64,000 bases of DNA from an uncultured Verrucomicrobiae bacterium. GTDB lineage: Bacteria; Chlamydiota; Chlamydiia; Chlamydiales; Rhabdochlamydiaceae. Made by a program: the position numbers and the translations under genes. Shown in pieces: positions 8,348 to 53,734 of this stretch. Location of the stretch: NCBI GenBank assembly GCA_963833965.1, contig CAWHZZ010000001.1:520274-584273 (forward strand). The letters run 5' to 3'. The first letter of the stretch is position 1. Each line of letters starts with the position of its first letter. The notes below the pieces were generated by a model. The model did not search any database. It was given only the letters and a program-made list of their open reading frames with translations, and was not told the origin of the DNA.

Positions 8348-8350
8348 TCA

Positions 8351-9406: not shown

Positions 9407-9476
9407 ACCCTGAAGAATTGCTGTAATTTAAGTTTTGTGTTACATGCAATTTTTATCAAAAAAATTGGAGTGGTCT

Positions 9477-10586: not shown

Positions 10587-11166
10587 ATTTCAGTTTTCCG
10601 TGGTGTAGAGCGATCTGATCTCTTTTCCAGGGCAGAGAGCTTCCATATTTTTCATCGCCTAAAATGGGATGGCCCATGGCGGCCAGTTGTGCGCGGATTT
10701 GATGGTAGCGCCCGGTTTCTAAACGAATTTCTAGAAGAGTTTTGCCATCTCTCTTGTCGATCTGCAAATAATACAAGCGGGCGAGTTTTGCCTGTGGGTG
10801 AGAAGAATTGACAACTTTTGCTTTATGCTCATCGTGGAACAAGTGGTGTTCCAGTATCGCTTCTTGCTGCAACAAATTTCCTTCCACCCAAGCAAAGTAA
10901 GTCTTCTCAATTCCTTTTTCACGCATCATTTCATTCAGGCGAGAAATAGCTTTGCTCGTCCTGGCAAAAAGCACAAGACCGCTCACCGGTTTGTCTAAGC
11001 GATGGACCGGTTCGAGAAAAACGTTGCCGGGTTTTTGAAATTCTTTTTTCAGCCAGGCTTTGGCCTGGTCGAGCAAATTGATCTGTTCGCCATCATGAGG
11101 CTGCGTGCTGACGCCTGCGGGTTTCAGAACAACGAGCAGATGATTGTCGCAAAAAACAATCTTCAT
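10531..11166 (-). CDS. RluA-family pseudouridine synthase
   Basis: Catalytic motif HRLDKPVSGLVLFARTSKA, followed by the C-terminal GRYHQIRAQLA. Confidence 0.85.
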   Translation of the reverse strand: MKIVFCDNHLLVVLKPAGVSTQPHDGEQINLLDQAKAWLKKEFQKPGNVFLEPVHRLDKPVSGLVLFARTSKAISRLNEMMREKGIEKTYFAWVEGNLLQQEAILEHHLFHDEHKAKVVNSSHPQAKLARLYYLQIDKRDGKTLLEIRLETGRYHQIRAQLAAMGHPILGDEKYGSSLPWKRDQIALHHGKLKFTHPVTKETLCFESPISR

Positions 11167-11963
11167 GTTCTTTGTCTCACCGCCTCATATAATAGAAGCG
11201 TGGTGGCAGTCGCGACATTGAGGGAATCGGCGACGCCGCGCATTGGAATGCGGACTTTAATGTCGGCGGCATTCATCCACTGCTCGGAAAGTCCAAGTTG
11301 TTCCGTGCCGACGGCAATCGCGATGCCCTCTTTAAGGTCGGCGCTTGTAAACTCCTGCTCTGCAGAGGGTGTCGCCGCGACGATTTTTATCTTTCTCTCT
11401 CTCAACCACTCCAATGTCTCTATACTCCCCGCTTCGACCACGGGAATCGTGAAGAGCGTGCCTACGCTTGCGCGCACGACGTTGGGATTATAAATATCGG
11501 TACAGCGGTCGCAGACGATGACACCGTCGACGCCTGCCGCATCGGCGGAGCGCAGGATCGTGCCCAAATTTCCTGGTTTTTCGATGGCTTCTGCGATGAT
11601 GAAGAAAGGATGCTTTTTGAAAGTAAGATCCTTCAGAGATTTTTGCATCTGCTTGGCAATGGCGAGCAACCCGTCGGGCCGGTCGCGGTAAGAAAGCTTC
11701 TGAAAAACATGGGGTTCGCATTGAAGAATTTCTGCGCCCTGGCCTTTTATTTTTTCAATCAGGGCGTTTTCATTTTCACCGAGAAAAAAATCGGGGCAAT
11801 AAAATAACATTGTGATCGTGGCCCCACAATCAGCGGCGCGTTTAAGCTCGCGGTAGCCCTCGATGAGAAAGAGGCCCGTCGTATTGCGCTCCTTGCGGTC
11901 TGTCAATTTGACAGCATGCTTGACTTTGGGGTTCTGCAGGCTAGTGATCATGAGGCCACTCAT
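11163..11963 (-). CDS. TrmH/SpoU-family RNA 2'-O-methyltransferase
   Basis: SpoU motifs GNLGTILRSADAAG, IAVGTEQLGLS and IPMRGVADSLNVATATTLLLYE. The start is set at the ATG at 11963, which forms an ATGA overlap with the stop of the upstream gene. Confidence 0.85.
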   Translation of the reverse strand: MSGLMITSLQNPKVKHAVKLTDRKERNTTGLFLIEGYRELKRAADCGATITMLFYCPDFFLGENENALIEKIKGQGAEILQCEPHVFQKLSYRDRPDGLLAIAKQMQKSLKDLTFKKHPFFIIAEAIEKPGNLGTILRSADAAGVDGVIVCDRCTDIYNPNVVRASVGTLFTIPVVEAGSIETLEWLRERKIKIVAATPSAEQEFTSADLKEGIAIAVGTEQLGLSEQWMNAADIKVRIPMRGVADSLNVATATTLLLYEAVRQRT

Positions 11964-12799
11964 TTCACAACCCATTTCACATAACTGCCGCTGGGAATCG
12001 GATTCCCGTTTTGCGACGGCAAGATCATCTCGCCCGTTTCCAGTCGTCCAGTTCGATTGCACATTGTTTGCTGCATCAGATGGCCCATCACGATGGGGGT
12101 CATTCCCGGCGTATGCGTTGTGAAATACAGAAAAAGAGGGTCTTCGGAGAGCAGTTCGCGGGATAGCTCGAGCAATTCATGGATGTCGCGCTCGATCTTA
12201 AAAACCTCTCCTTTGCTGCCGCGGCCGAAGCTCGGGGGATCGAGGATAATGCCTTCGTAACGCGTCCCCCGCTTGATCTCCCGTTTCAAAAATTTCACCG
12301 CGTCGTCAACGATCCAACGGATAGGCGCATCTTTGAGTTGATTATACGAGGCATTTTCGCGCGCCCACGCGACCATCCCCTTTGACGCATCGACGTGGCA
12401 GACGCGCGCTCCGGCCTGCGCTGCCGCCAAAGTGGCCCCGCCCGAGTAGGCGAAAAGATTGAGAATTTGAGGAGTTTTGCGGCAAGAGCGGATCGCCTGC
12501 TTCATGGAGTTCCAGAGCAAGCTGTGCTCTGGAAAAACGCCGAGATGGCCAAAATCAGTAAGAGAAATTTTGAAACGCACCCCTTCAATTTCTGAAAACC
12601 AACTTTCGGGTATTTTTTTTTTGAATTTCCAGCTGTTGCCCCCATCGCGAGAAAATGAAGCATCGGCACTATCCCAAGCAGCCTTTGAAAGGGAAGTGCG
12701 CCAAAGCGCTTGGGAACAAGGGCGTGCGATCACATACTCGCCGAATTGTTCTAATTTTAGCTGATCTCCGCTATCGAGGAGTAAATATTTCTCTTTCAT
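11960..12799 (-). CDS. Class I SAM-dependent RNA methyltransferase (RlmI/YwbD-like catalytic domain)
   Basis: Motifs LNLFAYSGGATLAAA and IILDPPSFGRG (DPPxF motif). It is the first gene of a three-gene translationally coupled operon. Confidence 0.8.
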   Translation of the reverse strand: MKEKYLLLDSGDQLKLEQFGEYVIARPCSQALWRTSLSKAAWDSADASFSRDGGNSWKFKKKIPESWFSEIEGVRFKISLTDFGHLGVFPEHSLLWNSMKQAIRSCRKTPQILNLFAYSGGATLAAAQAGARVCHVDASKGMVAWARENASYNQLKDAPIRWIVDDAVKFLKREIKRGTRYEGIILDPPSFGRGSKGEVFKIERDIHELLELSRELLSEDPLFLYFTTHTPGMTPIVMGHLMQQTMCNRTGRLETGEMILPSQNGNPIPSGSYVKWVVK

Positions 12800-12868
12800 A
12801 AGGTCACTATTTTAGCAGAAATAATCGATTATTTGATATAATTGTATGCTTTATATAGGAAAATTCAT

Positions 12869-13642
12869 ATGACAAATCCCATTCAAAGAACACAAAACAC
12901 TCAGCTCAATTACACGATGAACGTGGCTCCTTCTGTCCGTATTGCACCGAAGCAAAGGCCAACCGACTCTTTGAGGACAACGCAAAATGCCCAGGGCGGG
13001 TTTTCGTTTACCGCGATTTGGGATACTATTGTGAACTGTTTTACCTCCTGTTTTGGACGCTTTTTTAGCCGCACTCAGGCGCCAAGCAACACCCCCAAAG
13101 ATCAAATTGCGCAGATCGCCGCTCGCGATCATTTCGTGTGGTTCTATAAACAACAGGAAAATCCTCTCACCGCATTTTTAGGCAACTTTCATGCCTGCCC
13201 GGTATCTTATATGGGTTTCAATTTTCGATGCGCGGAAGCGGCTTACCAAGCAGCAAAATTTCATCCCGACCGGAGGATGATGCAGCGTTTCGAGAACCTC
13301 GATGGGGAAGCCGCGTTCCAATCCGCAAGGACCCTCACTCAGAGTTGGACACCCGTCCAAAGGAATCAATGGCAGCAAAACAGCCTTCGCATCATGCGCG
13401 AAGTTGTCCATGCGAAATTCTCCCAAAATGCCGACCTCGCAGAGCTGCTTCTTGCGACAGGGAATGCCTACCTCGTCGAACACACTCCTGTCCGAGGAAG
13501 GGATGCGTTTTGGGGAGACGATCACAACGGCACGGGACTAAATTGGCTCGGCCATATTGCGATGGAGACCCGTCGAACCTTGGGAGGGAGCCCTCCCGTC
13601 GCCAGAAATCAGCAGTACAACCAGTTTCTCTCAAGGCAATAA
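12869..13642 (+). CDS. NADAR (YbiA/DUF1768) domain protein with a roughly 90-aa N-terminal extension of unknown function
   Basis: Motifs FYKQQENPLTAFLGNFH...FNFRCAEAAYQAAKF...AELLLATGNAYLVEHTP...DAFWGDDHNGTGLNWLG match the NADAR fold signature. The ATG at 12869 is preceded by AGGAAA. Confidence 0.72.
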   Translation: MTNPIQRTQNTQLNYTMNVAPSVRIAPKQRPTDSLRTTQNAQGGFSFTAIWDTIVNCFTSCFGRFFSRTQAPSNTPKDQIAQIAARDHFVWFYKQQENPLTAFLGNFHACPVSYMGFNFRCAEAAYQAAKFHPDRRMMQRFENLDGEAAFQSARTLTQSWTPVQRNQWQQNSLRIMREVVHAKFSQNADLAELLLATGNAYLVEHTPVRGRDAFWGDDHNGTGLNWLGHIAMETRRTLGGSPPVARNQQYNQFLSRQ

Positions 13643-14869
13643 CGGAAACGCGGGAATCCCCTTCTCAACTTTTCGCCATAGAGCGCCCAAAAGTTTCTGG
13701 GAAGTCGACAGAGTGATCGTCTGGCGGCTGCCAAACGCTTGAAACGTGGCGACATCGGGAGATTTTCCCCGCTCGCCAATGGCCGCGCAGATCGTGCCCA
13801 CGGGTTTTTGCTCTGTTCCGCCGGAGGGACCCGCGATACCGGAGACCGCGATGGCAAAGTCTGCGCCGCTCTTTTGAAATACGCCCTCTAGCATTTCTCG
13901 AACGGCCTCTTCGCTGACAGCGCCATGAGAGTCGAGCGTTTTTTTGGAGACACCCAAGATTTTTTCCTTCATCGCATCGGAATAGACGACAAACGAGCCC
14001 AAAAAATAGGCCGAGGCCCCGGGAACAGAAGTGATGGCAGAGGAAATCATGCCGCCCGTGCACGATTCCGCAAAGGCCAGCGTTTTGTTGTGTTTGACGA
14101 ACCAATCTTGTACGGCCTCTTCGATTTTTCCGCTTTTTGCCGTGTAGCGGTAGTCGCTAAATTGCGAGGAGAGTTTTTTTTCAAAAGCTTCCAGCTGCTT
14201 TTTGTCGGAAGAATGCAATGCGACGCTTAGCGTTCCGTGGGCGGGATAGATGCCCGCTTCAACCGCAGGAAAACGCTCACTTAAAGCTCGCAAATGGGGA
14301 TCGATGAGGCTTTCATAGACAAGGCAGAAGAATAAGTGCGCGGATTCTTTTTTCTCTTTCACGGGAAACTTCTGCTGAGTGAGAGGCAGGATCTGGTCGA
14401 GGAACATCGGTTCCATTTCTTTGGGGACGCCGGGCATCAGGATCAGTGTTTTACCGTTGTCTGAAAAGACAAGGCCGGGCGCCGTTCCAATGCGATTGAG
14501 AAGGGGTTTGGCCTTTGTTGGAATCGTCGCCTGGTTTTCCACATCGACGCGCACATTTGCAAAGCGTCGCTTAATGTCATCGGCGACAACCTGATCAAAA
14601 TGAAAATCGGAATGGAAAAGCTCGGCGGCAATCTCTCGGGTCCGATCGTCGAGAGTGGGCCCGAGCCCGCCTGTCGCAATCATGAGGTCTGCCCGCTCCA
14701 TCGCCTCCCGAAGGCCGCGTTGAAGCGCATTGCGCTCATCAGGCAGAACGGTGTGGCGCGCGATCGCGTACCCTGCGAGCCGTAAATGGCGGCTGATAAA
14801 GGCGAGATTGGTGTTGAGGACAGAGCCTTTGAGCAACTCATCTCCGATGGAGATCAATTCTATGATCAT
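13631..14869 (-). CDS. cinA: CinA-family protein (MoCF-binding N-domain plus PncC-like nicotinamide-nucleotide amidase C-domain)
   Basis: N-terminal motif ELISIGDELLKGSVLNTN and C-terminal motifs ESCTGG and GIAGP. Confidence 0.88.
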   Translation of the reverse strand: MIIELISIGDELLKGSVLNTNLAFISRHLRLAGYAIARHTVLPDERNALQRGLREAMERADLMIATGGLGPTLDDRTREIAAELFHSDFHFDQVVADDIKRRFANVRVDVENQATIPTKAKPLLNRIGTAPGLVFSDNGKTLILMPGVPKEMEPMFLDQILPLTQQKFPVKEKKESAHLFFCLVYESLIDPHLRALSERFPAVEAGIYPAHGTLSVALHSSDKKQLEAFEKKLSSQFSDYRYTAKSGKIEEAVQDWFVKHNKTLAFAESCTGGMISSAITSVPGASAYFLGSFVVYSDAMKEKILGVSKKTLDSHGAVSEEAVREMLEGVFQKSGADFAIAVSGIAGPSGGTEQKPVGTICAAIGERGKSPDVATFQAFGSRQTITLSTSQKLLGALWRKVEKGIPAFPLLP

Positions 14870-43900: not shown

Positions 43901-45445
43901 ATGTATAACCAACTGATAAAAAACACTTATGCCGAAGATGATTCAAAAGTTGGGAATTGGGCAAGGCGGTTGCGCAAATTCCCAACTTTAGAATCATTTT
44001 CGGTATATATAGGAACAATCTTTTATTTGCTTTTCCACACGTGTGCACTCTGGGGTGACATTCCTCCCTCGCTACAAGGATTGCCTTACGGAATATACCC
44101 AACAAGTCCTACATATAATACTGAGCGTCTGAACTACAATAAACGCTTTGTCGTCTTTCCTCAGGCAATTTTTGCCCCTACAACAAATGATGAAGTCGTC
44201 TATGTCCTGACTCAATTGAAACAATATAACCTACCTTTTGCGGTCCGATCCGGAGGTCATTGCTTTGAACCGGGATCTCTATCCCCAGACTATGTGATCG
44301 ATGTTTCGAATTTTAACTCTATAATACCCAATATAGGAACTGGAGAAGTTTATATCGGAGCAGGTTGCCTTCTCTTGGATGTACTCAATGCCCTTGGTCT
44401 CATCGATTATGCTATCCCTTCCGGCGAATGCCCAACAGTAGGCATTACAGGGCTGACATTGGGGGGCGGCATAGGATTGCTAACCCGCCCCTACGGCCTG
44501 ACTTGCGATTCGGTAAAGAGCATTACTTTAGTCAATGCCGCATGCGAAGTGATCGAAGTTAATGAATCCAGCTACCCAGATCTATTTTGGGCTCTCCGTG
44601 GAGGTGGAAACGGATCTTATGGAATCGTCCTTGGCTTTACGTTTCAAATGCAATACATTCCAACGGTTACATACTATGAGCTTCTCTGGGAGTATGATGT
44701 GGACCTGATCGCTCCTTTGATGAAAGCCTGGCAATCCTGGGTTGGCACATTGCCCGATACGATTTCTTCAATATTGGGAATCCGACATCCAGGAAGTCTC
44801 GCTGCCTCACCTGCAACATCTCCACCGCTAACGATTCGTATATCTGGACTTAAATTAGGTTCAGCACCTTTCACGGAATGGCAAAGTGCTTTCTTTCGCT
44901 TTAACCCCACCATTACCCTGTTCACCGGGAGTTACCTCGATTCCTCAGCGTATTGGGCGAGGGAGAGCACAAAGCCTTTCAATAAGGCAAAGTCCAGAAT
45001 TTTGATGAACCCCATCACTTCGAAAACGACAAAGAAGATAACCAAGTTCTTTAAAAAAATCGATGCGACCAATCCAGATTATACGGTTTATTTTGAGTTC
45101 GATGCTTTAGGAGGAAAAACACCGGATAATCAAACCGCATTTTTCCCTCGCAATGCATTTGGATGGTGGTATCAGGCCTACTTTTGGGATTTTGAAGAGG
45201 AGACGCCACAAATATTAGCGCTTAGCAGAAACTTTTTCGCAAACATTCCTAATGAAGTGTCCAATTACTGCTATGCAAATGTCGTCGATTACGACCTTGG
45301 AAAATATTATCTTTGGGCCTACTACGGCAATCTTGCAGGACACCTAATCAAAATAAAGCAAAAATACGATCCGGCAAATTTTTTTAACTGGGAACAAAGC
45401 ATTCCCGTTATCAATTCCGTGCCAGGCAGTTTAATTGCTCAATAG
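43901..45445 (+). CDS. FAD-linked oxidase (FAD_binding_4 / berberine-bridge-enzyme-like)
   Basis: Motifs VRSGGHCFEPGS, GLTLGGGIG and LFWALRGGGNGSYGIV, with a C-terminal BBE-like YDPANFF. The ATG at 43901 is preferred over the overlapping TTG at 43847. Confidence 0.82.
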   Translation: MYNQLIKNTYAEDDSKVGNWARRLRKFPTLESFSVYIGTIFYLLFHTCALWGDIPPSLQGLPYGIYPTSPTYNTERLNYNKRFVVFPQAIFAPTTNDEVVYVLTQLKQYNLPFAVRSGGHCFEPGSLSPDYVIDVSNFNSIIPNIGTGEVYIGAGCLLLDVLNALGLIDYAIPSGECPTVGITGLTLGGGIGLLTRPYGLTCDSVKSITLVNAACEVIEVNESSYPDLFWALRGGGNGSYGIVLGFTFQMQYIPTVTYYELLWEYDVDLIAPLMKAWQSWVGTLPDTISSILGIRHPGSLAASPATSPPLTIRISGLKLGSAPFTEWQSAFFRFNPTITLFTGSYLDSSAYWARESTKPFNKAKSRILMNPITSKTTKKITKFFKKIDATNPDYTVYFEFDALGGKTPDNQTAFFPRNAFGWWYQAYFWDFEEETPQILALSRNFFANIPNEVSNYCYANVVDYDLGKYYLWAYYGNLAGHLIKIKQKYDPANFFNWEQSIPVINSVPGSLIAQ

Positions 45446-45465
45446 ATTGAGCTCTCTGTACTTGA

Positions 45466-45497
45466 CCGGTTCGCGGCATGCAGGCCGCTTCACTTCG
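45466..45497 (+). repeat. Isolated 32-nt fragment of the 148-bp repeat core, with its hairpin loop inverted
   Basis: CCGGTTCGCGGC-ATGCAG-GCCGCTTCACTTCG here versus CCGGTTCGCGGC-CTGCAT-GCCGCTTCACTTCG in the array units. The two are identical except that the 6-nt loop is reverse-complemented. Confidence 0.8.
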
Positions 45498-45839
45498 CCC
45501 TCCGGGCCAGTTCAAGCGATGCTTCGCACGCTTCCTTGGAACTTTCAATCGCATTTGCAGGCTTTCCTTACAATACAGACGGTAGATTCTTTTGTGGTTC
45601 ACGGACCACCCTTCCCGCTGCAACAAAGTGTGAATCCGACGATAACCATAGCGTACACGGATTGATGCGATTTCTTTGACCCGTTTAACTAAAAATGCCT
45701 GATCTCCTCGAATTGACTTGTAACGGTGCATAGATCGGCGAATATGCAGCACTGCACAAGCTCTTCTTTCGCTCACTCGATGAACGAGAACTAGCTCTTT
45801 GACTAGTTCGCGTTGGAGAGCAGGCTTTAAAGCTTTTTT
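45498..45839 (-). pseudogene. IS3-family transposase OrfB, N-terminal fragment only
   Basis: The -1 frame from the slippery site reads KKALKPALQRELVKELVLVHRVSERRACAVLHIRRS...YGYRRIHTLLQREGWSVNHKRIYRLYCKESLQMRLK. Similarity then ends where the repeat fragment begins. Confidence 0.75.
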
Positions 45840-46093
45840 GAAAGCACCTCTTGCAGCATGTGTTTGTCTAGATTCAAATCAGCTACAAGCTGCTTTAATC
45901 GACGATTTTCCTCTTCCAATTGTTTTAACCGTCGAAGTTCGGAAGGCATCAGCCCACCATATTTCTTCTTCCATTGGTAAAATGTTGCCTGCGAAATGCC
46001 AAGCTTGCGACAAATTTCGTCGATAATGGTTCCGTTTTCTGCCTGTTTCAAAGCGAAAACTATTTGCTCTTCCGTAAATTTGCTTTTCTTCAT
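45827..46093 (-). CDS. IS3-family transposase OrfA (HTH)
   Basis: MKKSKFTEEQIVFALKQAENGTIIDEICRKLGISQATFYQWKKKYGG...LEEENRRLKQLVADL. Confidence 0.85.
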   Translation of the reverse strand: MKKSKFTEEQIVFALKQAENGTIIDEICRKLGISQATFYQWKKKYGGLMPSELRRLKQLEEENRRLKQLVADLNLDKHMLQEVLSKKL

Positions 46094-46390: not shown

Positions 46391-46750
46391 ATGTTGCTAG
46401 TCCCGAAACTGAGGGTGCGCTTTTTTGCTACTGAAAACGGAAAAGAACCGGTCAAAGAATGGCTAAAAGAATTAACGAAAATTGAACGAAAAACCATTGG
46501 GGATGATATCAAAACTGTTCAGTTTGGTTGGCCCTTAGGAATGCCTCTTGTAAAAAATATAGGACAAGGCCTTTGGGAGGTAAGGAGCACCATTCCGAAT
46601 GGAATAGCTCGGGTGCTCTTTGTAGCTAAATCGGGCGAAATGATTCTTTTGCACGGGATCATCAAGAAAACTAATAAACTGCTTCCTCAAGAGAAGGCAC
46701 TAGCTCTAAAAAGATTAAAGCTATGGGAGAATCAAAATGAAAAAAAATAA
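46391..46750 (+). CDS. higB: Type II toxin, RelE/ParE superfamily, HigB / phage Gp49-like
   Basis: 119 aa with motifs FFATENGKEPVKEWLKEL, LWEVRS, ARVLFV and LLHGIIKKT. A 14-nt overlap with a downstream HTH gene gives the toxin-first order typical of Hig systems. Confidence 0.75.
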   Translation: MLLVPKLRVRFFATENGKEPVKEWLKELTKIERKTIGDDIKTVQFGWPLGMPLVKNIGQGLWEVRSTIPNGIARVLFVAKSGEMILLHGIIKKTNKLLPQEKALALKRLKLWENQNEKK

Positions 46751-47018
46751 ACACACCGGATCAGATTTTGATGATTTCCTCAAAGAAGAGGGAATCCTCG
46801 AAGAATGCACAGCTGAGGCTATCAAAAGGGTCATTGCATTTCAATTAGAGCAAGAAATGAAAAAGCAGAAAATTACAAAGTCTCAATTTGCAAAAATGCT
46901 CAAAACAAGCAGAGCAGCCATCGATCGCATTTTAGATCCCAACAAAAGCTGTAGTTTGAAATCGCTTGTGATGGCAGTTACCGCACTGGGTAAGCATTTA
47001 GAGATTAGGATTGCTTAA
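46737..47018 (+). CDS. higA: HTH (XRE-like) antitoxin, HigA-like
   Basis: 93 aa with the helix-turn-helix segment ITKSQFAKMLKTSRAAIDRILDP. Confidence 0.72.
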   Translation: MKKNKHTGSDFDDFLKEEGILEECTAEAIKRVIAFQLEQEMKKQKITKSQFAKMLKTSRAAIDRILDPNKSCSLKSLVMAVTALGKHLEIRIA

Positions 47019-47123: not shown

Positions 47124-48167
47124 ATGACAATCTGTGCAATGAAGTGTTTTTCTATCATCGGTGTATTCTTCTTTCTTTCCTGCCTATCAGCAGCAGAGTG
47201 TGAAAGTCGAGAAAAATTATGCGAGAAAATCATGAAAGGATTGCTAAAGGTCGAAGAGAGTGTACAGATCAGAAAAATGCAAGGAGGACTTAATGGAGCA
47301 GAGTTATTTTTTTCACACTTCGATGATAAAAATTATGTAATTCGCTTTCAGGCTCAAGATACATTACAAGAACGCAAAAGGGAAATCCTTGCTTGTACAA
47401 TTGCTTCTGAGGAGAAGTATGGGCCTAAAGTTTACCTTGCTGATGCAGACCAAGGCTTCATTGTAATGGAGCATTTAAAAAACGAACTGCCTCAGGAAGA
47501 TGAAATTCTGATGGCTTTAGCAAATTTGGCAAAACGAATCCATTCCAGCCTCCAGTTTCCATATAGCAAAAATTTCTTCGACCAAATAACAGGCAAGATT
47601 GACGAATATCTAGGCACGCAAAAAGCTCAAATGGAGTGTATCCCAAAAGACTGGCTGGAGAGATTAACTTCTGCATTACAAGAGATTCGTCAAGCCGCAG
47701 ACTATTATCCCCACACGGCCTTATGTCATCGAGACCTGCACGAGCAAAATTTATTTTTCTCAAATGGGCGCTTTATTGCGATCGACTACGAAATGGCAGC
47801 TCAAGACGACCCTTTTGTAGATTTAGCCATGATAACAGTTTCCCACGATCTCAACTTAGAGCAAGCAAAATTCTTCCTCGCTTCATACCTAGGTCATAAG
47901 CCTAATGTGCAGGAAGAGTCTAAACTCTTCCTGTATGAACAAGCGGTGCGGATATTTTGGGGATTTTGCCTGATTGCGTTGGTCCCAGATGGAACTCCGG
48001 AGATTCAGCAATCCTTAGCCACACGCGAGGCAAAGATGGCTAGCTATAGAACCCCTGACGGTCAACTAACTAACGCTGCCGTTCGCATGCGCCATGCGCT
48101 CTCGAATTTCAACTCGCAAGAATACCAAGAAGCACTCAAAGTACTCGGATATCCACAAAACCATTAA
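47124..48167 (+). CDS. Phosphotransferase of the APH/choline-ethanolamine kinase family with a signal-peptide-like N-terminus
   Basis: Brenner motif HRDLHEQNLFF followed by IAIDYEMAAQDDPFVDLA. Hydrophobic N-terminus MKCFSIIGVFFFLSCLSA. Confidence 0.72.
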   Translation: MTICAMKCFSIIGVFFFLSCLSAAECESREKLCEKIMKGLLKVEESVQIRKMQGGLNGAELFFSHFDDKNYVIRFQAQDTLQERKREILACTIASEEKYGPKVYLADADQGFIVMEHLKNELPQEDEILMALANLAKRIHSSLQFPYSKNFFDQITGKIDEYLGTQKAQMECIPKDWLERLTSALQEIRQAADYYPHTALCHRDLHEQNLFFSNGRFIAIDYEMAAQDDPFVDLAMITVSHDLNLEQAKFFLASYLGHKPNVQEESKLFLYEQAVRIFWGFCLIALVPDGTPEIQQSLATREAKMASYRTPDGQLTNAAVRMRHALSNFNSQEYQEALKVLGYPQNH

Positions 48168-48416
48168 AGCCTATTTGTCCCCTATTAATCGAACTTCTGC
48201 TTGGTAGCGGACAGCACCGTTTTTGGTTTTCCTTTCTCTGATAAATCCGATTCGGGGCTCGAGTTAATATTTAAAAGGAGGACTCGTCTTTGCCGTAAAT
48301 CCAAAGGAATCGACACTCAAAAGCGATCAGCAAAACTATTTTGATGACCATGTTCGGGTGATTTAAGGAAATCTAGCACTACGGCTATATTACGGCATTC
48401 TCCGGCAAGAGAAATG

Positions 48417-48579
48417 TGGCCAGAACTGGAATCCCCTCGCCGCGGGCAGCTTCGCTGTCCCGTCAGGTCGGGTCCGGTTGCGGGCGGTTTTTTGCGAAGC
48501 AAAAAGCATCGCTCCTCACTTCGATTCCAGACAAAAGCCACGCAGGTGGCTTTTTTCTGGCATATTTTCTTTGAAAATA
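48417..48579 (+). repeat. B-type repeat unit (163 bp) opening the tandem array
   Basis: Starts with TGGCCAGAACTGGAATC (tRNA-Phe 3' end, reverse complement). Contains hairpins GGGCAGC-ttc-GCTGTCCC and TTTTTTGC-gaa-GCAAAAA. Ends with the shared module TTCGATTCCAGAC-AAAAGCCACGCAGGTGGCTTTTTT-CTGGCATATTTTCTTTGAAAATA. A second copy lies at 51494..51648. Confidence 0.85.
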
Positions 48580-49467
48580 TGGCCAGAACTGGAATCCTTT
48601 CAGGCGATGCGCGCTACCCGCGCGTCGTCGTCCTGAAAGCCGGTTCGCGGCCTGCATGCCGCTTCACTTCGATTCCAGACAAAAGCCACGCAGGTGGCTT
48701 TTTTCTGGCATATTTTCTTTGAAAATATGGCCAGAACTGGAATCCTTTCAGGCGATGCGCGCTACCCGCGCGTCGTCGTCCTGAAAGCCGGTTCGCGGCC
48801 TGCATGCCGCTTCACTTCGATTCCAGACAAAAGCCACGCAGGTGGCTTTTTTCTGGCATATTTTCTTTGAAAATATGGCCAGAACTGGAATCCTTTCAGG
48901 CGATGCGCGCTACCCGCGCGTCGTCGTCCTGAAAGCCGGTTCGCGGCCTGCATGCCGCTTCACTTCGATTCCAGACAAAAGCCACGCAGGTGGCTTTTTT
49001 CTGGCATATTTTCTTTGAAAATATGGCCAGAACTGGAATCCTTTCAGGCGATGCGCGCTACCCGCGCGTCGTCGTCCTGAAAGCCGGTTCGCGGCCTGCA
49101 TGCCGCTTCACTTCGATTCCAGACAAAAGCCACGCAGGTGGCTTTTTTCTGGCATATTTTCTTTGAAAATATGGCCAGAACTGGAATCCTTTCAGGCGAT
49201 GCGCGCTACCCGCGCGTCGTCGTCCTGAAAGCCGGTTCGCGGCCTGCATGCCGCTTCACTTCGATTCCAGACAAAAGCCACGCAGGTGGCTTTTTTCTGG
49301 CATATTTTCTTTGAAAATATGGCCAGAACTGGAATCCTTTCAGGCGATGCGCGCTACCCGCGCGTCGTCGTCCTGAAAGCCGGTTCGCGGCCTGCATGCC
49401 GCTTCACTTCGATTCCAGACAAAAGCCACGCAGGTGGCTTTTTTCTGGCATATTTTCTTTGAAAATA
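48580..49467 (+). repeat. Six identical 148-bp tandem repeat units (A-type)
   Basis: Unit starts fall at 48580, 48728, 48876, 49024, 49172 and 49320. Identical phantom ORFs appear every 148 nt in the ORF track, and I compared two units base by base. Confidence 0.95.
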
Positions 49468-49511
49468 TGGCCAGAACTGGAATCGAACCAGCGACACAAG
49501 GATTTTCAGTC
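49468..49511 (-). repeat. Partial copy of tRNA-Phe (3'-terminal 44 nt, from the anticodon loop to the discriminator); att-like direct repeat
   Basis: Identical to 51649..51692. It diverges at 49512 and lacks the 5' half, so it is not a functional tRNA. Confidence 0.9.
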
Positions 49512-49744
49512 TTGAAAATCCGCTTCCGAACCTTGCCTTGGATTTCCTTTAATCAACTAAGATTCCCAAATTCTATAGAGGAATCCAGATTTTTTCCAGA
49601 AAATATTGGTAATCGAAAGCAATCCAAGTCAACTTTAGGAAACTGGCAACTCCGTTGAATTTCCGTTATTTTTCTATCTAGGACTGCTGGCTTTATATCC
49701 ACCTCTGGCCGGAGCTTCTGGCTATGCCTTTTTCGATTTTTTTA

Positions 49745-49771
49745 TTGACATTCCTTTTATTTTGGTACAAT
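49745..49771 (+). promoter_or_regulatory. Candidate abiE promoter
   Basis: TTGACA (49745..49750), a 15-nt spacer, then TACAAT (49766..49771). The inverted repeat GGTACAA...TTGTACC spans from the -10 element to the start codon. Confidence 0.35.
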
Positions 49772-49809
49772 ATTACGGATATAGATGAGAAAATCCGCTA
49801 TTTTGTACC

Positions 49810-50424
49810 ATGAAGAAAAAATCAAAGCTTGAATTAGCTATTGCCGCATTTAGAGAAGCAGGTGGGATTCTTACCATGTCTGAGGCTATAAAAGTTGGCA
49901 TCCATCGTCGAGAGCTTTATACCCTTCGAGATAAAGGAGACCTAGAAGTCATTAGCAGAGGCCTATATCGATTGGTTGATATGCCTGATCCCTCATTGCC
50001 CGACTTTATCCCTGTGGCAAAAAAAATTCCTCATGGAGTTATTTGCCTCATTTCTGCGCTCGCCTTTCACGAAATAACAACTCAAATCCCTCATTTCGTT
50101 TATGTTGCATTGCCAAGTCAAGCACACAAGCCTACGATCTCTCATCCCCCTATGCGTTATTTTTGGTACAGCCAAAAGCTATTAAATACGGGTGTTCAGG
50201 AACATTCCATAGATGGATGTACTGTTATGATCTTTGACGTTGAGAAAACCCTCGTTGATTGCGTTAAATTTCGCAATAAAATTGGAATGGATGTCGTCCT
50301 AGAAGCTCTAAAAATGTATTGGCAAAGCAGAAAGACAAATCTCGATAAGCTTTTTGAATATGCTAAATTATTCCGTGTCGAAAAGATTTTAAAACCGATT
50401 ATGGAGACAATCGTCAGTGGGTAA
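49810..50424 (+). CDS. abiEi: Type IV toxin-antitoxin system antitoxin AbiEi
   Basis: 204 aa. The N-terminal winged-helix segment GGILTMSEAIKVGIHRRELYTLRDKGDLEVISRGLYRL, followed by GVICLISALAFHEIT, is typical of AbiEi. Confidence 0.78.
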   Translation: MKKKSKLELAIAAFREAGGILTMSEAIKVGIHRRELYTLRDKGDLEVISRGLYRLVDMPDPSLPDFIPVAKKIPHGVICLISALAFHEITTQIPHFVYVALPSQAHKPTISHPPMRYFWYSQKLLNTGVQEHSIDGCTVMIFDVEKTLVDCVKFRNKIGMDVVLEALKMYWQSRKTNLDKLFEYAKLFRVEKILKPIMETIVSG

Positions 50425-51277
50425 TACAATCGAAAAACCAAAGAAGAATCTTAGCGAATCAATACGCCAGCGTTTAAAAAATTTGTCAGAGCAGAGGAAT
50501 CGACCTTTTGATGAAATACTTCGGTATTACGCTATGGAGAGATTTTTATATCGCCTTAGCATTAGCTCCCATGCTAAGAAATTCTTCCTTAAGGGCGGCT
50601 TAATACTGAAAGTCTGGGATTCATTGGATCATAGAGCAACAATGGATATAGATTTGCTTGCAAGAACCTCCAACCAAATTGATAACTTACATCGGATCAT
50701 TACAGAGGTTTCGGAAATTGCCTGTGAGGAAGATGGCATCGCTTTCGACACGCAAAAGCTTATTCTCCGCGACACACAGACAGGTGGGGATTATAACGGC
50801 GTAAGCAGTAGCTTTTCAGCAAAATTGTTCACAACAAAAATGCCCGTTCTTATTGACATTGGCTTTAACGACATTGTCATTCCTAAACCTCAGAAAATCA
50901 AATATCCCACCCTGTTAGATATGCCAGAACCAACTTTACTGGGTTATACCTTGGAAACCGTTATAGCTGAAAAACTCGAATCGGTGGTAAAACTTGCGCT
51001 CGTTAACACCCGTATGAAAGATTTTTACGATCTATGGACCATCTTAAAGAGGTATGAGATAAAACCAGACAAGTTAAATATTGCCATCCGAGAAGTATTT
51101 GCAAATCGCAAAACCCCTCTTAAGCATCCTATAGCGTTTACGCCAGAGTTTTATGACAACAAGGAGACTCAACTACGTTGGAATAATTTTCTGTCTGCTA
51201 TGGGCAAACAACATATTAAGTTTGAAGATGTTATCTTGGAGCTATCAAAATCCATAAATGGACTTCTTGAAGACTAA
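50417..51277 (+). CDS. abiEii: Nucleotidyltransferase toxin AbiEii/AbiGii (DUF1814)
   Basis: 286 aa with motifs LKNLSEQRNRPFDEILRYYAMERFLYRLS, FFLKGGLIL and TMDIDLLAR. The GTG start overlaps the abiEi stop by 8 nt. Confidence 0.78.
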   Translation: MGNTIEKPKKNLSESIRQRLKNLSEQRNRPFDEILRYYAMERFLYRLSISSHAKKFFLKGGLILKVWDSLDHRATMDIDLLARTSNQIDNLHRIITEVSEIACEEDGIAFDTQKLILRDTQTGGDYNGVSSSFSAKLFTTKMPVLIDIGFNDIVIPKPQKIKYPTLLDMPEPTLLGYTLETVIAEKLESVVKLALVNTRMKDFYDLWTILKRYEIKPDKLNIAIREVFANRKTPLKHPIAFTPEFYDNKETQLRWNNFLSAMGKQHIKFEDVILELSKSINGLLED

Positions 51278-51351
51278 TTGAGATATTACAATCCTTTATC
51301 GTCAATGGAGGAGCGCAATATTTTGAGCGACAAATCTCAAAGCTTGCGTTT

Positions 51352-51648
51352 AATTCACTCCGATTCTAGACAAAATTTTCTCCGAAAATTTTGGAAGGAA
51401 ACTGGAATCCTTTCAGGCGATGCGCGCTACCCGCGCGTCGTCGTCCTGAAAGCCGGTTCGCGGCCTGCATGCCGCTTCACTTCGATTCCAGACTACTGGA
51501 ATCCCCTCGCCGCGGGCAGCAAGCTGTCCCGTCAGGTCGGGTCCGGTTGCGGTCGGTTTTTGCTAACGCAAAAACATCGATCCTCACTTCGATTCCAGAC
51601 AAAAGCCACGCAGGTGGCTTTTTTTCTGGCATATTTTCTTTGAAAATA
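51352..51648 (+). repeat. Degenerate junction, one A-type core (51400..51493) and one B-type unit (51494..51648) abutting tRNA-Phe
   Basis: 51400..51493 matches the array core from AACTGGAATCC to TTCGATTCCAGAC. 51494..51648 matches the unit at 48417..48579, and most of the differences fall in hairpin loops. Confidence 0.85.
51601..51625 (-). terminator. Terminator hairpin downstream of tRNA-Phe (the same hairpin recurs in every repeat unit)
   Basis: The minus strand reads AAAAAAA-GCCAC-CTGC-GTGGC-TTTTG. The plus strand reads AAAA-GCCAC-GCAG-GTGGC-TTTTTTT. Confidence 0.6.
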
Positions 51649-51721
<73 letters not shown>

Positions 51722-51775
51722 AAAAGAGATGACGAACAAGATCAATAAGATAGAAAGTCGAGTGATTTAAGGCAA

Positions 51776-53734
51776 TCACTTTTGCGCGGTTTGTTTTGAA
51801 GCGGGTTTGATGATAGCCATGTCTTTGAGGATGTTGACGGCTTCGGCCATTTGCAGATCGATGACGCCCCAATTCGCCTGGGATGTCTGCCTAAAGACAT
51901 TGACGTTCTTGTCTTCTTCGATCGCTTTGAGATAGAGTGTGAAGTCTTTATTTTGTTTGAGGCGATAGCCGCTATTGTCTAGGAGCCTGGGGAGCATTTG
52001 GGTCCAATGCGAGAGCTTTTTTTGCAGGGCGGGCAGATAATTTTTCTGAAACCACTGTCTATTGCGGGGATCGACATCGCTCAACGGATCGACATAGGCC
52101 GAGGGAATTCGGTCGTTATTTAATGGGTATTCTAGATACCGTTCGCCGAGGGCAAACCCTGAGTACGCGGTTGGGACGACGATATCGGCTTGGACGCCAT
52201 CGATTTGGGTGGACCTGCCAGACACTGTGTAATAGCGTCCTACAGTGACTTTAAAAAATGAACTTGCTGCGGAGTCTGTTACTGTTTGGTATTGAATCGT
52301 TCCCTTGCCATAGGTGCGTTCATCGCCGACGACGATGCCGGTCCCATAATCTTGAAGGGCCTGGGCGACAATCTCTGCAGCGGAGGCGGAACCTTTAGAA
52401 GTGAGGATGACAAGCGGGCCGGTATAGTAACTGCGCCCGTCCAAGGCCCTCAAGTACTGCGTTTCGCCATAGGCGTATTTTGAGACGACGATAACACCAC
52501 TCGTGACAAAAAGGCCTGCGACTTTGACGGCCTGATTGAGAAAACCACCGGAGTTTTCCCGCATATCGAGAACGAGGCCGACAAGGTTGCCCTGTTTTTT
52601 AAGGACCCGCAAAGCTTCCCTCATCTCGATTTCGCAATTCGACCCTCCGGCGCTTTCATAGAACGAGGGGAGGTTAATTTTGCCGATGATTCCATCGCCG
52701 TAATGCTCAAATGAATACTGCACGCGGTCGTCTTGCATGACGATCTTTTCGCGTTTGAGATCGACACGGTAAATCTGGAATTCTCCATCAGCATGACGGA
52801 GTCCAAGTTGGACCCTGCCTTTGCCGGCGCCCTGAAGCCGTTTCAATATATCCTCATAGGGAACATCGATGATGCTCTGACCGTCGACTTCGACAAGGAG
52901 ATCGCCAGGGTTAATCTTCCCGGAGCGCTGGGCGGGGCCCCCTTTGATCATGTCGTGAATGACCACTCCATCAATGCTTTCACGCAAAACGACGCCAATC
53001 CCGTCAAACTGCTTTTCCAAACTGGTCCGCATTTCGTGGGCCTCTTCGGGACTGTAATAAGAGGTATGGGCATCCAGGCTTTTGGCAAGGGCCTTCAAAG
53101 TATGCATGCACAAATAATGCTCCGATGCGGAGTCTTGCAAATAGGTGTTTTCGAGCCTGACAAATCGCCTCTCCCAAAGCGCAAAAATTTTTTTTCGCTG
53201 CTCTGGCGTGAGAGCGGTCAGTTTATTTGCCTGTTTTTCGACCCAGACCACTCGCTGAAGCTGCCGCCGGACCCTCTCTTTCAGTTCTTTTTCATTGCGA
53301 GGGTAGTCGACGTAGGCACCTCCAGTCCCCATCTGCACCTCATCGCCGTCTGCGATGAGCTCTACTTTAAGTTCCTCTCGATAGCCTTGGGCCCTGACGA
53401 TCGCCTCTTGGATAATTTGATTTAATTTTTGATACTCGGAAAGATCGTCCTGATAGTATTTTTGAATGACAGACTTGATTTTATCTTCTTTAGGCTCCAA
53501 ATAGGGCTTCACTTCCCCTAATAACAGATAGACTTTGTCGGGATCAAACTGTTCAATGAAAATTTTAAGAGAGCGCTTCGCGACGAGTGGAGAAAATTCT
53601 TTATATTCGACGTGGTAGCCGAAAATATCCTGCATTGTCTTCCTGACGTTTTCCTTTCTCAGCTGGAATTCGCCGGGTTGGAACGCGAAGAGAAGAAACA
53701 ACGCTGCTGGCAGAAATAGGCGAAGAAATAACAT
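51776..53734 (-). CDS. tsp: Tail-specific (C-terminal processing) protease, S41 family, with a PDZ domain
   Basis: 652 aa with a signal peptide. The PDZ segment is GGPAQRSGKINPGDLLVEVDG and the S41 core is LVILTSKGSASAAEIVAQAL. Confidence 0.88.
   Translation of the reverse strand: MLFLRLFLPAALFLLFAFQPGEFQLRKENVRKTMQDIFGYHVEYKEFSPLVAKRSLKIFIEQFDPDKVYLLLGEVKPYLEPKEDKIKSVIQKYYQDDLSEYQKLNQIIQEAIVRAQGYREELKVELIADGDEVQMGTGGAYVDYPRNEKELKERVRRQLQRVVWVEKQANKLTALTPEQRKKIFALWERRFVRLENTYLQDSASEHYLCMHTLKALAKSLDAHTSYYSPEEAHEMRTSLEKQFDGIGVVLRESIDGVVIHDMIKGGPAQRSGKINPGDLLVEVDGQSIIDVPYEDILKRLQGAGKGRVQLGLRHADGEFQIYRVDLKREKIVMQDDRVQYSFEHYGDGIIGKINLPSFYESAGGSNCEIEMREALRVLKKQGNLVGLVLDMRENSGGFLNQAVKVAGLFVTSGVIVVSKYAYGETQYLRALDGRSYYTGPLVILTSKGSASAAEIVAQALQDYGTGIVVGDERTYGKGTIQYQTVTDSAASSFFKVTVGRYYTVSGRSTQIDGVQADIVVPTAYSGFALGERYLEYPLNNDRIPSAYVDPLSDVDPRNRQWFQKNYLPALQKKLSHWTQMLPRLLDNSGYRLKQNKDFTLYLKAIEEDKNVNVFRQTSQANWGVIDLQMAEAVNILKDMAIIKPASKQTAQK

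Follow-up and report, generated by a model that had tools for sequence, protein, structure and literature searches.

tRNA-linked repeats (TLRs) have been described in E. coli since Egan and Landy 1978; 22 of them lie at ten loci, downstream of a tRNA or rRNA gene and in the same orientation, with one to five copies per locus (PMC8144298). The 3′ end of a TLR is identical to that of the upstream gene over 18–19 bp, the TLRs of rRNA operons are reached by read-through, and the elements have "no known function" (PMC8144298). When checked in sequence, E. coli K-12 displayed four 178-bp RtT units, each closing with the last 19 nt of tRNA-Tyr, and in the Rfam RtT consensus GgGaaGGAU, an inverted copy to the tRNA-derived end, is paired with AUCCuuCcC. 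Our literature search returned no TLRs described outside E. coli and no chlamydial counterpart. A further class of elements at tRNA genes, the tyrosine-integrase islands, recombines by crossover in the anticodon loop.

The array studied here lies in a 64,000-nucleotide stretch of DNA (the window, referring to the whole stretch analysed) from a chlamydia-like bacterium. Tandem Repeats Finder reported a period of 148 with 6.5 copies, 100% matches and 0 indels at 48516..49484, and the A units starting at 48580, 48728, 48876, 49024, 49172 and 49320 (n=6) are identical strings, confirming at the level of the assembly the tandem array of six identical 148-bp A units and one 163-bp B unit that had been recognized from the letters alone. 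The B unit shares the frame of the A units, but its P2 and P3 hairpins are longer and contain tandem G.A pairs. As the sequence-only reading had counted, the last 17 nt of tRNA-Phe (GATTCCAGTTCTGGCCA) occur nine times on the minus strand (0 expected from shuffles); they close seven of the nine units of the window exactly, the total being the 6+1 array plus two cores (A2 and B2) at the same locus. All nine modules lie on the tRNA-Phe strand, downstream of a real or partial tRNA. Every palindrome listed earlier was found in the sequence, and the array is indeed not CRISPR-like, with whole 148-bp units identical and no unique sequence in between. Judged from its sequence, the array is real and is a counterpart of the E. 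coli tRNA-linked repeats in chlamydia-like bacteria. The earlier opinion that the arrangement belongs to no described element class was thus wrong, since E. coli TLRs share it (PMC8144298; checked on K-12). The features of the locus are collected in the table.

Table. Features of the tRNA-Phe locus and its surroundings (plus-strand coordinates of the window).
Feature	Position	Strand	Evidence
Truncated module (GAAGUGA, P2 and GAACCGG only)	45437..45520	-	R1 match 23.9 bits, E 9e-4
Conserved flank starting directly after the last tRNA-end copy	48354..48416	-	sequence comparison with related loci
B unit, 163 bp	48417..48579	-	R1 match 98.9 bits
A units (six, 148 bp each)	48580..49467	-	repeat finder, sequence, R1 matches of 127.3 bits apiece
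Direct copy of tRNA end	48580..48596	-	unit 48580..48727
Acceptor strand of direct copy	48580..48588	-	unit 48580..48727
P1 3′ strand	48589..48596	-	unit 48580..48727
P3 hairpin	48597..48639	-	unit 48580..48727
Junction GAACCGG	48640..48646	-	unit 48580..48727
P2 hairpin	48647..48662	-	unit 48580..48727
Junction GAAGUGA	48664..48670	-	unit 48580..48727
P1 5′ strand	48671..48678	-	unit 48580..48727
H1 hairpin	48681..48702	-	unit 48580..48727
Inverted acceptor copy	48703..48710	-	unit 48580..48727
Spacer hairpin H0	48711..48727	-	unit 48580..48727
44-nt tRNA-Phe 3′ half, anticodon loop to discriminator	49468..49511	-	identity with 51649..51692
AbiEi antitoxin	49810..50424	+	Pfam PF13338, 2.3e-10
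AbiEii nucleotidyltransferase toxin	50417..51277	+	Pfam PF08843, 4.7e-42
Degenerate third-core start (GTCTAGAATCGGAGTGAAT)	51353..51371	-	sequence
A2 core	51402..51491	-	R1 match 77.5 bits
B2 core, first module after the real tRNA	51496..51598	-	R1 match 51495..51624, 75 bits
Functional tRNA-Phe (GAA), CCA not encoded	51649..51721	-	ARAGORN; Rfam tRNA 73.2 bits

Read on the tRNA strand, each unit starts with the spacer hairpin H0, continues with an inverted copy of the tRNA end that is split by H1 and P2, and ends, after the variable hairpin P3, with the final 17 nt of the tRNA copied in direct orientation. The inverted copy represents the last 20–25 nt of the tRNA (UGCCAGAA...CUGGAAUCGAA...CCGG), into which H1 and P2 are inserted. 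In the predicted fold, the inverted and direct copies pair to form a helix of ~15–16 bp, whose 3′ strand is the T-stem and acceptor strand of tRNA-Phe up to the discriminator A, and this outer helix closes a three-way junction with the conserved purine-rich joints GAAGUGA and GAACCGG. P1 (CUGGAAUC paired with GAUUCCAG) is 95.7% paired across 32 sequences. Folding of one unit in its tandem context gave -79.4 kcal/mol (z = -6.9); in this context the inverted copy has two possible partners, the direct copies on its upstream and downstream sides, which makes the outer helix ambiguous in register. No unit was called as a tRNA or tmRNA by ARAGORN or Rfam, and a T-loop is lacking from the tRNA strand of the units.

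Collection scans revealed the module frame in 16 further chlamydia-like loci. A complete or partial tRNA-Phe stands directly upstream in 13 of them, always on the strand of the module, the examined sequence of the other three (L006, L007 and L017) showing no upstream tRNA. This indicates that the module is linked to tRNA-Phe rather than being a dispersed REP, an outcome named in advance as one that would undo the first reading; a REP- or MITE-type dispersed repeat is likewise disfavored within the 64-kb window, where our R1 model matches only the tRNA-Phe locus and the remnant at 45.4 kb. The invariant blocks of the module are partly due to the search patterns used, and five of the 11 matches from the metagenome pattern search were discarded as chance matches in GC-rich or coding DNA. 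Arrays are present in at least three further loci (3+1+1 and 6 copies in L005, 4 copies in L014) and single copies in L004, L008, L013 and L026. Two loci with the module are island-free: L013, with the order Tsp, tRNA-Phe, module, ribosomal protein L21, and L026, which has no integrase. The flanking Tsp proteins of the related loci range from 75% down to 41% identity to that of the window, indicating that the lineages are deeply diverged; among the 120 Tsp homologue matches listed, the lowest identity was 56%, and the Chlamydiaceae, for which RNA-seq data exist, lie beyond that listing. Where the tRNA acceptor carries CCGG instead of CUGG (L003 and L009), the inverted copy is altered accordingly, and Simkaniaceae-like loci have two mismatches in the inverted acceptor copy.

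Structural conservation among copies, which had been called for when the array was first read, is borne out by changes on both sides of pairs in H1, P2 and P3 that exceed those of shuffles. In 20 distinct units, 87.3% of the cells are paired (77.0% in shuffles) and 24 pairs are changed on both sides compared with 13.5 in shuffles, 0 of 500 of which reach 24; slid controls gave 8–15. Extending the alignment to 32 distinct model-aligned units resulted in 88.9% paired cells (74.4% in shuffles) and 30 changes on both sides (18.2 in shuffles, 7–15 in slid controls), with compensatory changes in the three hairpins and double changes in the outer acceptor-like helix too. As to the strand, 22 G.A mismatches against a single C.U are read on the tRNA strand, and the fold is more stable on that strand in 16 of 22 cores, whereas the wobble pairs pick no strand, G.U and A.C counts being equal (14 to 15). 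With a covarying stem and no U-tract on either strand in L008, L009, the second array of L005 and L019, H1 has the look of a structural stem; the plus-strand terminator hairpin that the sequence-only reading had seen there is not upheld, and helices and mismatches favor the minus strand. Scanning for consensus promoters and terminators gave no clear signal (9 and 5 found, with 5.6 and 5.1 expected, respectively) and showed no promoter-like site within the units. A hairpin resembling a strong terminator directly follows the tRNA in L001, L002, L003 and L021, and the module in such lineages would therefore need read-through. The 6+1 array itself may be silent, since oppositely facing island genes split it from the tRNA promoter and the consensus promoter upstream of it is weak.

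The tRNA-Phe gene was confirmed on the minus strand by both ARAGORN and Rfam. It is followed by B2, a diverged B core that differs in its loops and in P2, where U-A replaces G-C as a compensatory change, and then, after UAGU only, by A2, which matches the array A core exactly and has no acceptor-strand copy behind it. AbiEi and AbiEii are the cargo of a ~2.1-kb island between the real and the partial tRNA. The identity of the two tRNA copies begins sharply at the anticodon loop, and the 44-nt fragment (22.7 bits with neighboring sequence in Rfam, not reaching the gathering score of 29) is a tRNA copy presumably displaced by insertion of the AbiE island at that loop. The earlier reading had correctly seen the fragment as a copy of the tRNA 3′ half, but the repeat shared by the two sites extends over ~109 nt, not 44. 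The layout of the AbiE island is that of islands targeting tRNA genes, with the tRNA on one side of the cargo and a direct repeat of the tRNA's 3′ portion on the other. Neither tblastn over the window with the L004 integrase nor Pfam on local ORFs detected an integrase. Within the conserved flank behind the array are GCCGTA-N5-GCCGTA and ...CTAGATTTCCTTAAATCACCC; in L004 and L025 this flank is followed by a tyrosine integrase, suggesting that it is a remnant integrase-proximal arm of an older island. The truncated module lies 3 kb beyond the array and adjoins IS3-family transposase fragments identified by Pfam. A Pom domain match in the window is in keeping with a chlamydial origin.

We propose that the array is probably a tandemly amplified tRNA-Phe TLR, a small structured RNA made with tRNA-Phe whose copy number was raised by unequal recombination. 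In chlamydia-like bacteria, this structured element spans ~100–150 nt immediately behind tRNA-Phe and has the same orientation as the tRNA. Its units would be transcribed with tRNA-Phe, or through read-through of the hairpin behind the tRNA; enzymes that trim tRNA ends may recognize the acceptor/T-stem mimic and cut the units apart, each unit yielding one small stable RNA. The copies would have multiplied by slippage or unequal recombination at their identical direct repeats. The locus also serves as an integration hotspot, where insertion of the 2.1-kb AbiE island presumably took place at the anticodon loop; the island would have carried in a tRNA 3′ half of its own with B2 and A2 and displaced the older tRNA 3′ half with the 6+1 array. 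Among the three possibilities offered by the sequence-only reading, an array of small tRNA-like RNA genes comes closest to this proposal, on the minus strand and not with a plus-strand terminator; recombinational amplification is reasonable for the copy number, although what was amplified is a conserved structured element and not a bare attachment site.

Several other explanations were weighed against the amplified TLR. It is doubtful that the units are DNA-level attachment sites, in which the 17-mer and its inverted partner are recombined by tyrosine integrases targeting tRNA-Phe and arrays form by integrase-mediated unequal exchange or serial integration of small circles, an explanation that takes in the first two possibilities of the sequence-only reading. 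The integrase-proximal flank abuts the 17-mer copy in the window, L004, L005, L008 and L019, abuts the tRNA in L025 and is followed by integrases in L004 and L025, every unit carries the tRNA end in both inverted and direct form, the array units are identical and the locus is rich in islands, all of which would fit such sites. However, single units occur in the island-free L013 and L026, the tblastn search returned no integrase from the window, and the mappable island junction is the anticodon loop rather than the 17-mer; on these same grounds the earlier suggestion of serial integration of a gene-less module finds no support. A circle of 121–148 bp is also very small for integrase synapsis. 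Taken with the 22:1 G.A bias, the compensatory base changes seen in H1, P2 and P3 are better matched by a folded single strand than by duplex protein-binding sites. The same changes, found in three hairpins and the outer helix, make it improbable that the units are functionless relics, that is, partial duplicates of the tRNA-Phe 3′ half that stem from past integrations, have decayed and were later multiplied by slippage. The architecture is kept where the neighboring Tsp is only 41–46% identical, and the inverted copy tracks the acceptor-stem change, although the unit does contain stretches similar to tRNA-Phe in either orientation, a convincing promoter is missing from the displaced array, truncated remnants lie at 45437..45520 and 51353..51371, and the E. 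coli TLRs are also recorded without a function (PMC8144298). Compensatory changes and retention of the element where Tsp is only ~41% identical suggest that the arrangement is selected rather than accidental.

A plus-strand small RNA, with units transcribed antisense to the tRNA and ending at the AAAAGCCAC...GTGGCTTTTTT hairpin, would account for the six T after H1 on the plus strand of the window and for weak isrK-like terminator matches on that strand (15–18 bits, with a gathering score of 50). It is very improbable in view of the relatives whose covarying H1 has no U-tract on either strand, the G.A to C.U ratio, the greater stability of the tRNA strand and the lack of promoter-like sites inside the units. 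Mis-assembly of the repeats, affecting the array or its copy number, is scarcely credible: independent assemblies carry arrays of this element with unit lengths of 121, 143 and 145 bp, and both edges of the array join unique sequence cleanly, even though perfectly identical tandem copies are hard to count and a short-read contig with the window's own Tsp gene (L024) breaks inside tRNA-Phe, just before the repeated half.

Other identities were considered and rejected. Apart from tRNA and chance-level matches, Rfam families searched at permissive thresholds yielded nothing in the window or in minimal or diverged relatives, ruling out known ribozymes, riboswitches, tmRNA and RtT. A hammerhead-like core in L011 (CUGAUGA...GAA) was dropped as this stretch is part of the P3 stem and is not present elsewhere. 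The plus-strand TGGCCAGAACTGGAATC resembles a retroviral primer-binding site but was rejected as one, because the stretch is complementary to the tRNA end as encoded, with the added CCA left out, and the neighborhood has no reverse transcriptase. A bridge RNA or guide RNA of IS110-type or similar elements was rejected because no such transposase was found, the only transposase sequences being the IS3-family fragments 3 kb off, and an integron attC because cassettes, an integron integrase and an R-box are all lacking. A CRISPR array was discarded for its want of unique spacers.

The element represents a second, unrelated family with TLR architecture, in a phylum distant from that of E. coli, and would give Rfam and chlamydial genome annotation an RNA family not annotated so far. 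It also makes sense of a confusing locus, at which toxin-antitoxin and phage-like islands stack up on tRNA-Phe in these bacteria, each carrying in its own tRNA 3′ half and repeat units. A bolder version, which we consider distinctly doubtful, is that the units truly mimic the "top half" of a tRNA, are freed by the enzymes trimming tRNA 5′ and 3′ ends, possibly receive CCA and act as a dosage-tunable small RNA; at the DNA level, their tRNA-like 3′ ends would double as secondary landing sites for integrases that target tRNA-Phe, with islands stacking behind the array rather than in the tRNA, and TLRs would be general and ancient, having arisen independently in two distant phyla. If the top-half mimicry were true, a chlamydial family with strong covariation could reveal what TLRs do.

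Compared with islands at tRNA genes, the locus is alike in that partial and real tRNA-Phe bracket a 2.1-kb toxin-antitoxin island with a sharp junction at the anticodon loop, and relatives have integrases at the same place (L004 and L025). It differs in that the island of the window has no integrase and the repeat runs ~65 nt beyond the tRNA end into the module; moreover, the island account covers the 44-nt fragment and the splitting of the locus, but not the 148-bp units. The likeness to RtT (RF00391, the tyrT/tyrV trailer repeat) lies in the fold: an internal inverted copy (GGGGAAGGAU) forms a closing helix with the tRNA-derived 3′ end (AUCCUUCCCC), which encloses a multi-helix junction followed by a single-stranded tRNA-type tail, and the units are in tandem. 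The Rfam RtT model gave no match in 47500..52500 even at E up to 10, while yielding four matches of 133–138 bits at the E. coli locus as a positive control, and the R1 model did not match that locus (L023). The chlamydial inverted copy is also longer, running over ~20–25 nt from the acceptor strand through the T-stem into the T-loop, and is split by inserted hairpins, and its locus has no evident small ORF comparable to tpr. With the E. coli TLRs as a whole, the chlamydial units share their place directly downstream of a tRNA in the same orientation, their occurrence in one to several tandem copies per locus, and an ending in the 3′ end of the upstream tRNA, over 17 rather than 18–19 nt because CCA is not encoded. 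They differ in host (Chlamydiota, not Enterobacteria), in the tRNA concerned (Phe), in having no detectable sequence homology to the E. coli elements, in an array of up to seven copies with two more at the locus, and in that the chlamydial element also rides integrated islands beside their tRNA 3′ half.

Tandem Repeats Finder resolved the array into 6.5 copies of a 148-bp period, with 100% matches and 0 indels at 48516..49484. The six A units proved to be string-identical and the B unit measures 163 bp. The final 17 nt of tRNA-Phe, GATTCCAGTTCTGGCCA, occurs nine times on the minus strand and 0 times in shuffles, and the 44 nt at 49468..49511 are identical to 51649..51692. The array is therefore real and beyond chance, and the sequence-only reading was right about the identical units with their longer variant, the nine tRNA ends and the copied tRNA half. 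At 49468..49537 (-) ARAGORN called a pseudo-tRNA whose anticodon has 4 bases (gaaa); it reaches 22.7 bits with Rfam tRNA, under threshold, and consists of the 44-nt tRNA half and island sequence in which an inverted repeat still flanks the anticodon loop. Such an inverted repeat is expected of an integrase core site. Elsewhere in the window, a 108-bp unit (36 codons) is repeated in tandem ~4.9 times, at 85% identity, over 58940..59520 inside an 823-aa ORF (57548..60019, -), whose product is presumably a repeat-containing protein.

Read on the tRNA strand, each unit runs through spacer hairpin H0, UGCCAGAA, hairpin H1, GU, CUGGAAUC, GAAGUGA, hairpin P2, GAACCGG, hairpin P3, GAUUCCAG and UUCUGGCCA. 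Together, UGGCCAGAA-CUGGAAUCGAA-CCGGC forms the reverse complement of approximately the last 25 nt of tRNA-Phe, with one mismatch and with H1 and P2 as interruptions, and the unit closes with a direct 17-nt copy of the tRNA end. Base pairing of this copy with the inverted one produces P1 (8 bp) and an acceptor-like helix (7-9 bp). The 3′ strand of the combined helix is the tRNA T-stem plus acceptor-stem strand, terminating in the discriminator A; H1 departs about where the D and anticodon arms branch from tRNA. In the diverged unit of L026, a locus found via a Tsp (tail-specific protease) homologue, H1 is absent and the acceptor and T-stem parts of the inverted copy are therefore contiguous. 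Minimal forms have 54-62 nt between the P1 strands and a P3 of 4 bp (loci L013, L014, L015, L019 and L021), and P2 and P3 are elaborated in the A and B forms of the window. In a tandem context the upstream direct copy is an equally good partner for the inverted copy, which leaves the P1-P2-P3 core as the sole constant part.

Scanning one genome per species with a frame common to the A and B cores yielded 11 stretches, and the MAGs that contain them bear the labels Chlamydiota, Chlamydiia, Rhabdochlamydiaceae, Simkaniaceae and "Verrucomicrobiae"; when metagenomes were scanned with a looser pattern, 6 true loci joined these, alongside 5 chance matches, giving 17 stretches on 16 contigs as relatives. 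Linkage to tRNA-Phe in other Chlamydiae, a check suggested by the sequence-only reading, held for most related loci: in 13 of 16 the module follows immediately on a complete or partial tRNA-Phe in the same orientation, and in L006, L007 and L017 the available sequence has no tRNA there. L004 shares the gene order of the window, with a Tsp 75% identical, and identity at other loci goes down to 41-46%, so that "Verrucomicrobiae" is probably a loose label. Copy number varies: L005 carries arrays of 3+1+1 and 6 copies (periods 143 and 145), L014 four copies (period 121), and L001 and L002 the beginning of another copy behind the first. L013 reads Tsp, tRNA-Phe, one minimal module and ribosomal protein L21 with no island, and L026 has a single unit and no integrase; the element is thus native to the tRNA-Phe locus and more than island cargo. 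Directly behind the L026 unit, 8333..9046 encodes a 237-aa metallo-beta-lactamase-fold protein (Apyc1-like match, weak Lactamase_B_2). RNase Z is a member of that fold superfamily.

The fold is supported by covariation. When 20 distinct units were aligned with MAFFT and a structure was written for them by hand, 87.3% of cells were paired versus 77.0% in shuffles, and 24 pairs had changed on both sides versus 13.5 ± 2.1, a count reached in 0 of 500 shuffles; sliding the partners by 1-3 columns left 8-15. With 32 distinct units, diverged ones included, a model-based alignment gave 88.9% versus 74.4% and 30 double-changed pairs versus 18.2 (slid controls 7-15), with double changes in the outer helix also, although this alignment, being fitted to the structure, is biased in its favour. 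P1 shows little or no variation, which is partly an effect of search patterns that fixed it. In L003 and L009 the tRNA acceptor stem carries CCGG and the inverted copy the matching change. Structural conservation among copies is accordingly upheld, and the reading of H1 as a terminator is not: its stem covaries, and it is without a U-tract in L008, L009, L019 and the second L005 array. Wobble pairs are uninformative on strand (G.U 14, A.C 15). Folded RNA tolerates G.A mismatches, and on the tRNA strand these outnumber C.U by 22 to 1; the more stable fold lies on that strand in 16 of 22 cores. These results lend support to the tRNA strand without settling the question, because many counted cells are inherited and not independent.

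The locus has also been a target of islands. A domain of the Protochlamydia outer membrane protein type (Pom) in the window puts its organism with the Parachlamydiaceae-like chlamydiae. The gene order reads EF-G, S7 and S12, then on the opposite strand Tsp and tRNA-Phe. Beyond the array follow a conserved flank, a kinase-like gene, a toxin-antitoxin pair, transposase fragments and a truncated module, the last two being probably the outer edge of an island stack at tRNA-Phe.

Features of the tRNA-Phe locus (window coordinates unless a related contig is named)
Feature	Position	Strand	Remark
Real tRNA-Phe	51649..51721	-	
B2 core	51496..51598		directly behind real tRNA
A2 core	51402..51491		behind real tRNA; identical to array A core
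AbiEi antitoxin and AbiEii nucleotidyltransferase toxin	49810..51277	+	2.1-kb island between real tRNA-Phe and 44-nt fragment
Conserved flank	48354..48416 (-); L004 5166..5230; L008 7251..7315; L025 8118..8180		begins directly behind last tRNA-end copy
Gp49/HTH_37 (HigB/HigA-like) toxin-antitoxin pair and APH/choline-kinase-like phosphotransferase	46391..47018 and 47124..48167	+	between array and remnant module
IS3-family transposase fragments (HTH_Tnp_1, truncated HTH_21)	45411..46093	-	beside truncated module
Truncated module	45437..45520	-	

The real-tRNA region and the array-proximal copy become identical abruptly at the anticodon loop and, one indel aside, stay so for ~109 nt, which takes in the tRNA half, H0, H1 and the beginning of P1; within P2 they part. 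Such boundaries are in keeping with an island that had its own tRNA 3′ half and modules (B2, A2) and entered by a tyrosine-integrase crossover in the anticodon loop. L021 has the same arrangement, with a Gp49/HTH_37 pair in its tRNA-Phe island. The flank carries 6-nt direct repeats 11 bp apart (GCCGTA-N5-GCCGTA; TCCGGA-N5-TCCGGA; AACGGA-N5-AACGGA), which look like integrase arm-type binding sites, and terminates in ...TTTCCTTAAATCACCC. L004, L005 and L008 share this conserved flank, and L009 and L019 share part of it; it is followed by a phage-type (tyrosine) integrase in L004 and L025, and in L025 abuts the tRNA itself with no module in between. Neither tblastn with the L004 integrase nor Pfam on local ORFs found an integrase in the window, and we interpret the flank as an older island's integrase-proximal arm, the integrase itself having been lost in the window. 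In L025 (Tsp 80% identical), the stretch 8339..13980 behind tRNA-Phe holds genes for an integrase and a DnaB-like helicase, plus a weak packaging-protein match, and looks like a phage-like or satellite-like element integrated at the same site. The simplest history would be serial insertions at tRNA-Phe, each arrival displacing older material outward, with the module at 45.4 kb as the outermost trace. Some DUF1814 nucleotidyltransferase toxins related to AbiEii act on tRNA acceptor ends; the pair's position beside tRNA-end mimics may or may not be coincidence.

What the units do is probably, with real room for doubt, best read as follows. A folded RNA would be co-transcribed with tRNA-Phe or made by read-through, be released when enzymes that process tRNA ends cut at its acceptor/T-stem mimic, and act in trans, its copies being amplified by unequal recombination or slippage between repeats. 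A role of the DNA itself as an attachment site would suit the conserved flank that leads into integrases in L004 and L025, and is unlikely beside the covarying fold, the anticodon-loop boundary and the island-free unit of L013. The 6+1 array of the window may be silent because the AbiE island cuts it off from the tRNA promoter, a situation in keeping with a functionless relic; with paired changes retained across relatives, we consider a relic distinctly improbable. The G.A bias and fold stability leave little credit to an RNA from the plus strand. Perfect repeats invite suspicion of an assembly artefact, which is scarcely credible given the arrays at L005 and L014. L024, a 2254-bp short-read contig with the window's own Tsp gene, stops inside tRNA-Phe before the part duplicated in the window, consistent with short-read assemblies being broken by the repeat.

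The sequence-only reading recognised no described element class here; the arrangement is in fact that of the tRNA-linked repeats (TLRs) of E. coli, first reported in 1978, of which 22 are spread over ten loci, with one to five at each (PMC8144298). They have "no known function", an early amino-acid starvation link of the tyrT repeat having been withdrawn, and transcription past a first terminator produces three rRNA-operon TLRs, which bind Hfq and CsrA (PMC8144298). We checked K-12, where tyrT/tyrV has four 178-bp units, each terminating in the final 19 nt of tRNA-Tyr and matching Rfam RtT (RF00391) at 133-138 bits. Membership of the RtT family itself was rejected: the RtT model has no match in the window, nor has R1, our covariance model of the chlamydial module, at the E. 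coli locus, and no other Rfam family matches. Our literature search found no description of TLRs outside E. coli or of this element in chlamydiae. The chlamydial element is not a new class; it adds a new family, from a further phylum, to a kind already known and unexplained, and is conserved as an unannotated structured element across chlamydia-like bacteria. In the RtT consensus, GgGaaGGAU pairs with AUCCuuCcC, that is, an internal inverted copy with the tRNA-derived end, enclosing a multi-helix junction; the chlamydial unit has the same design and, as a second, independent example, could help to explain TLRs.
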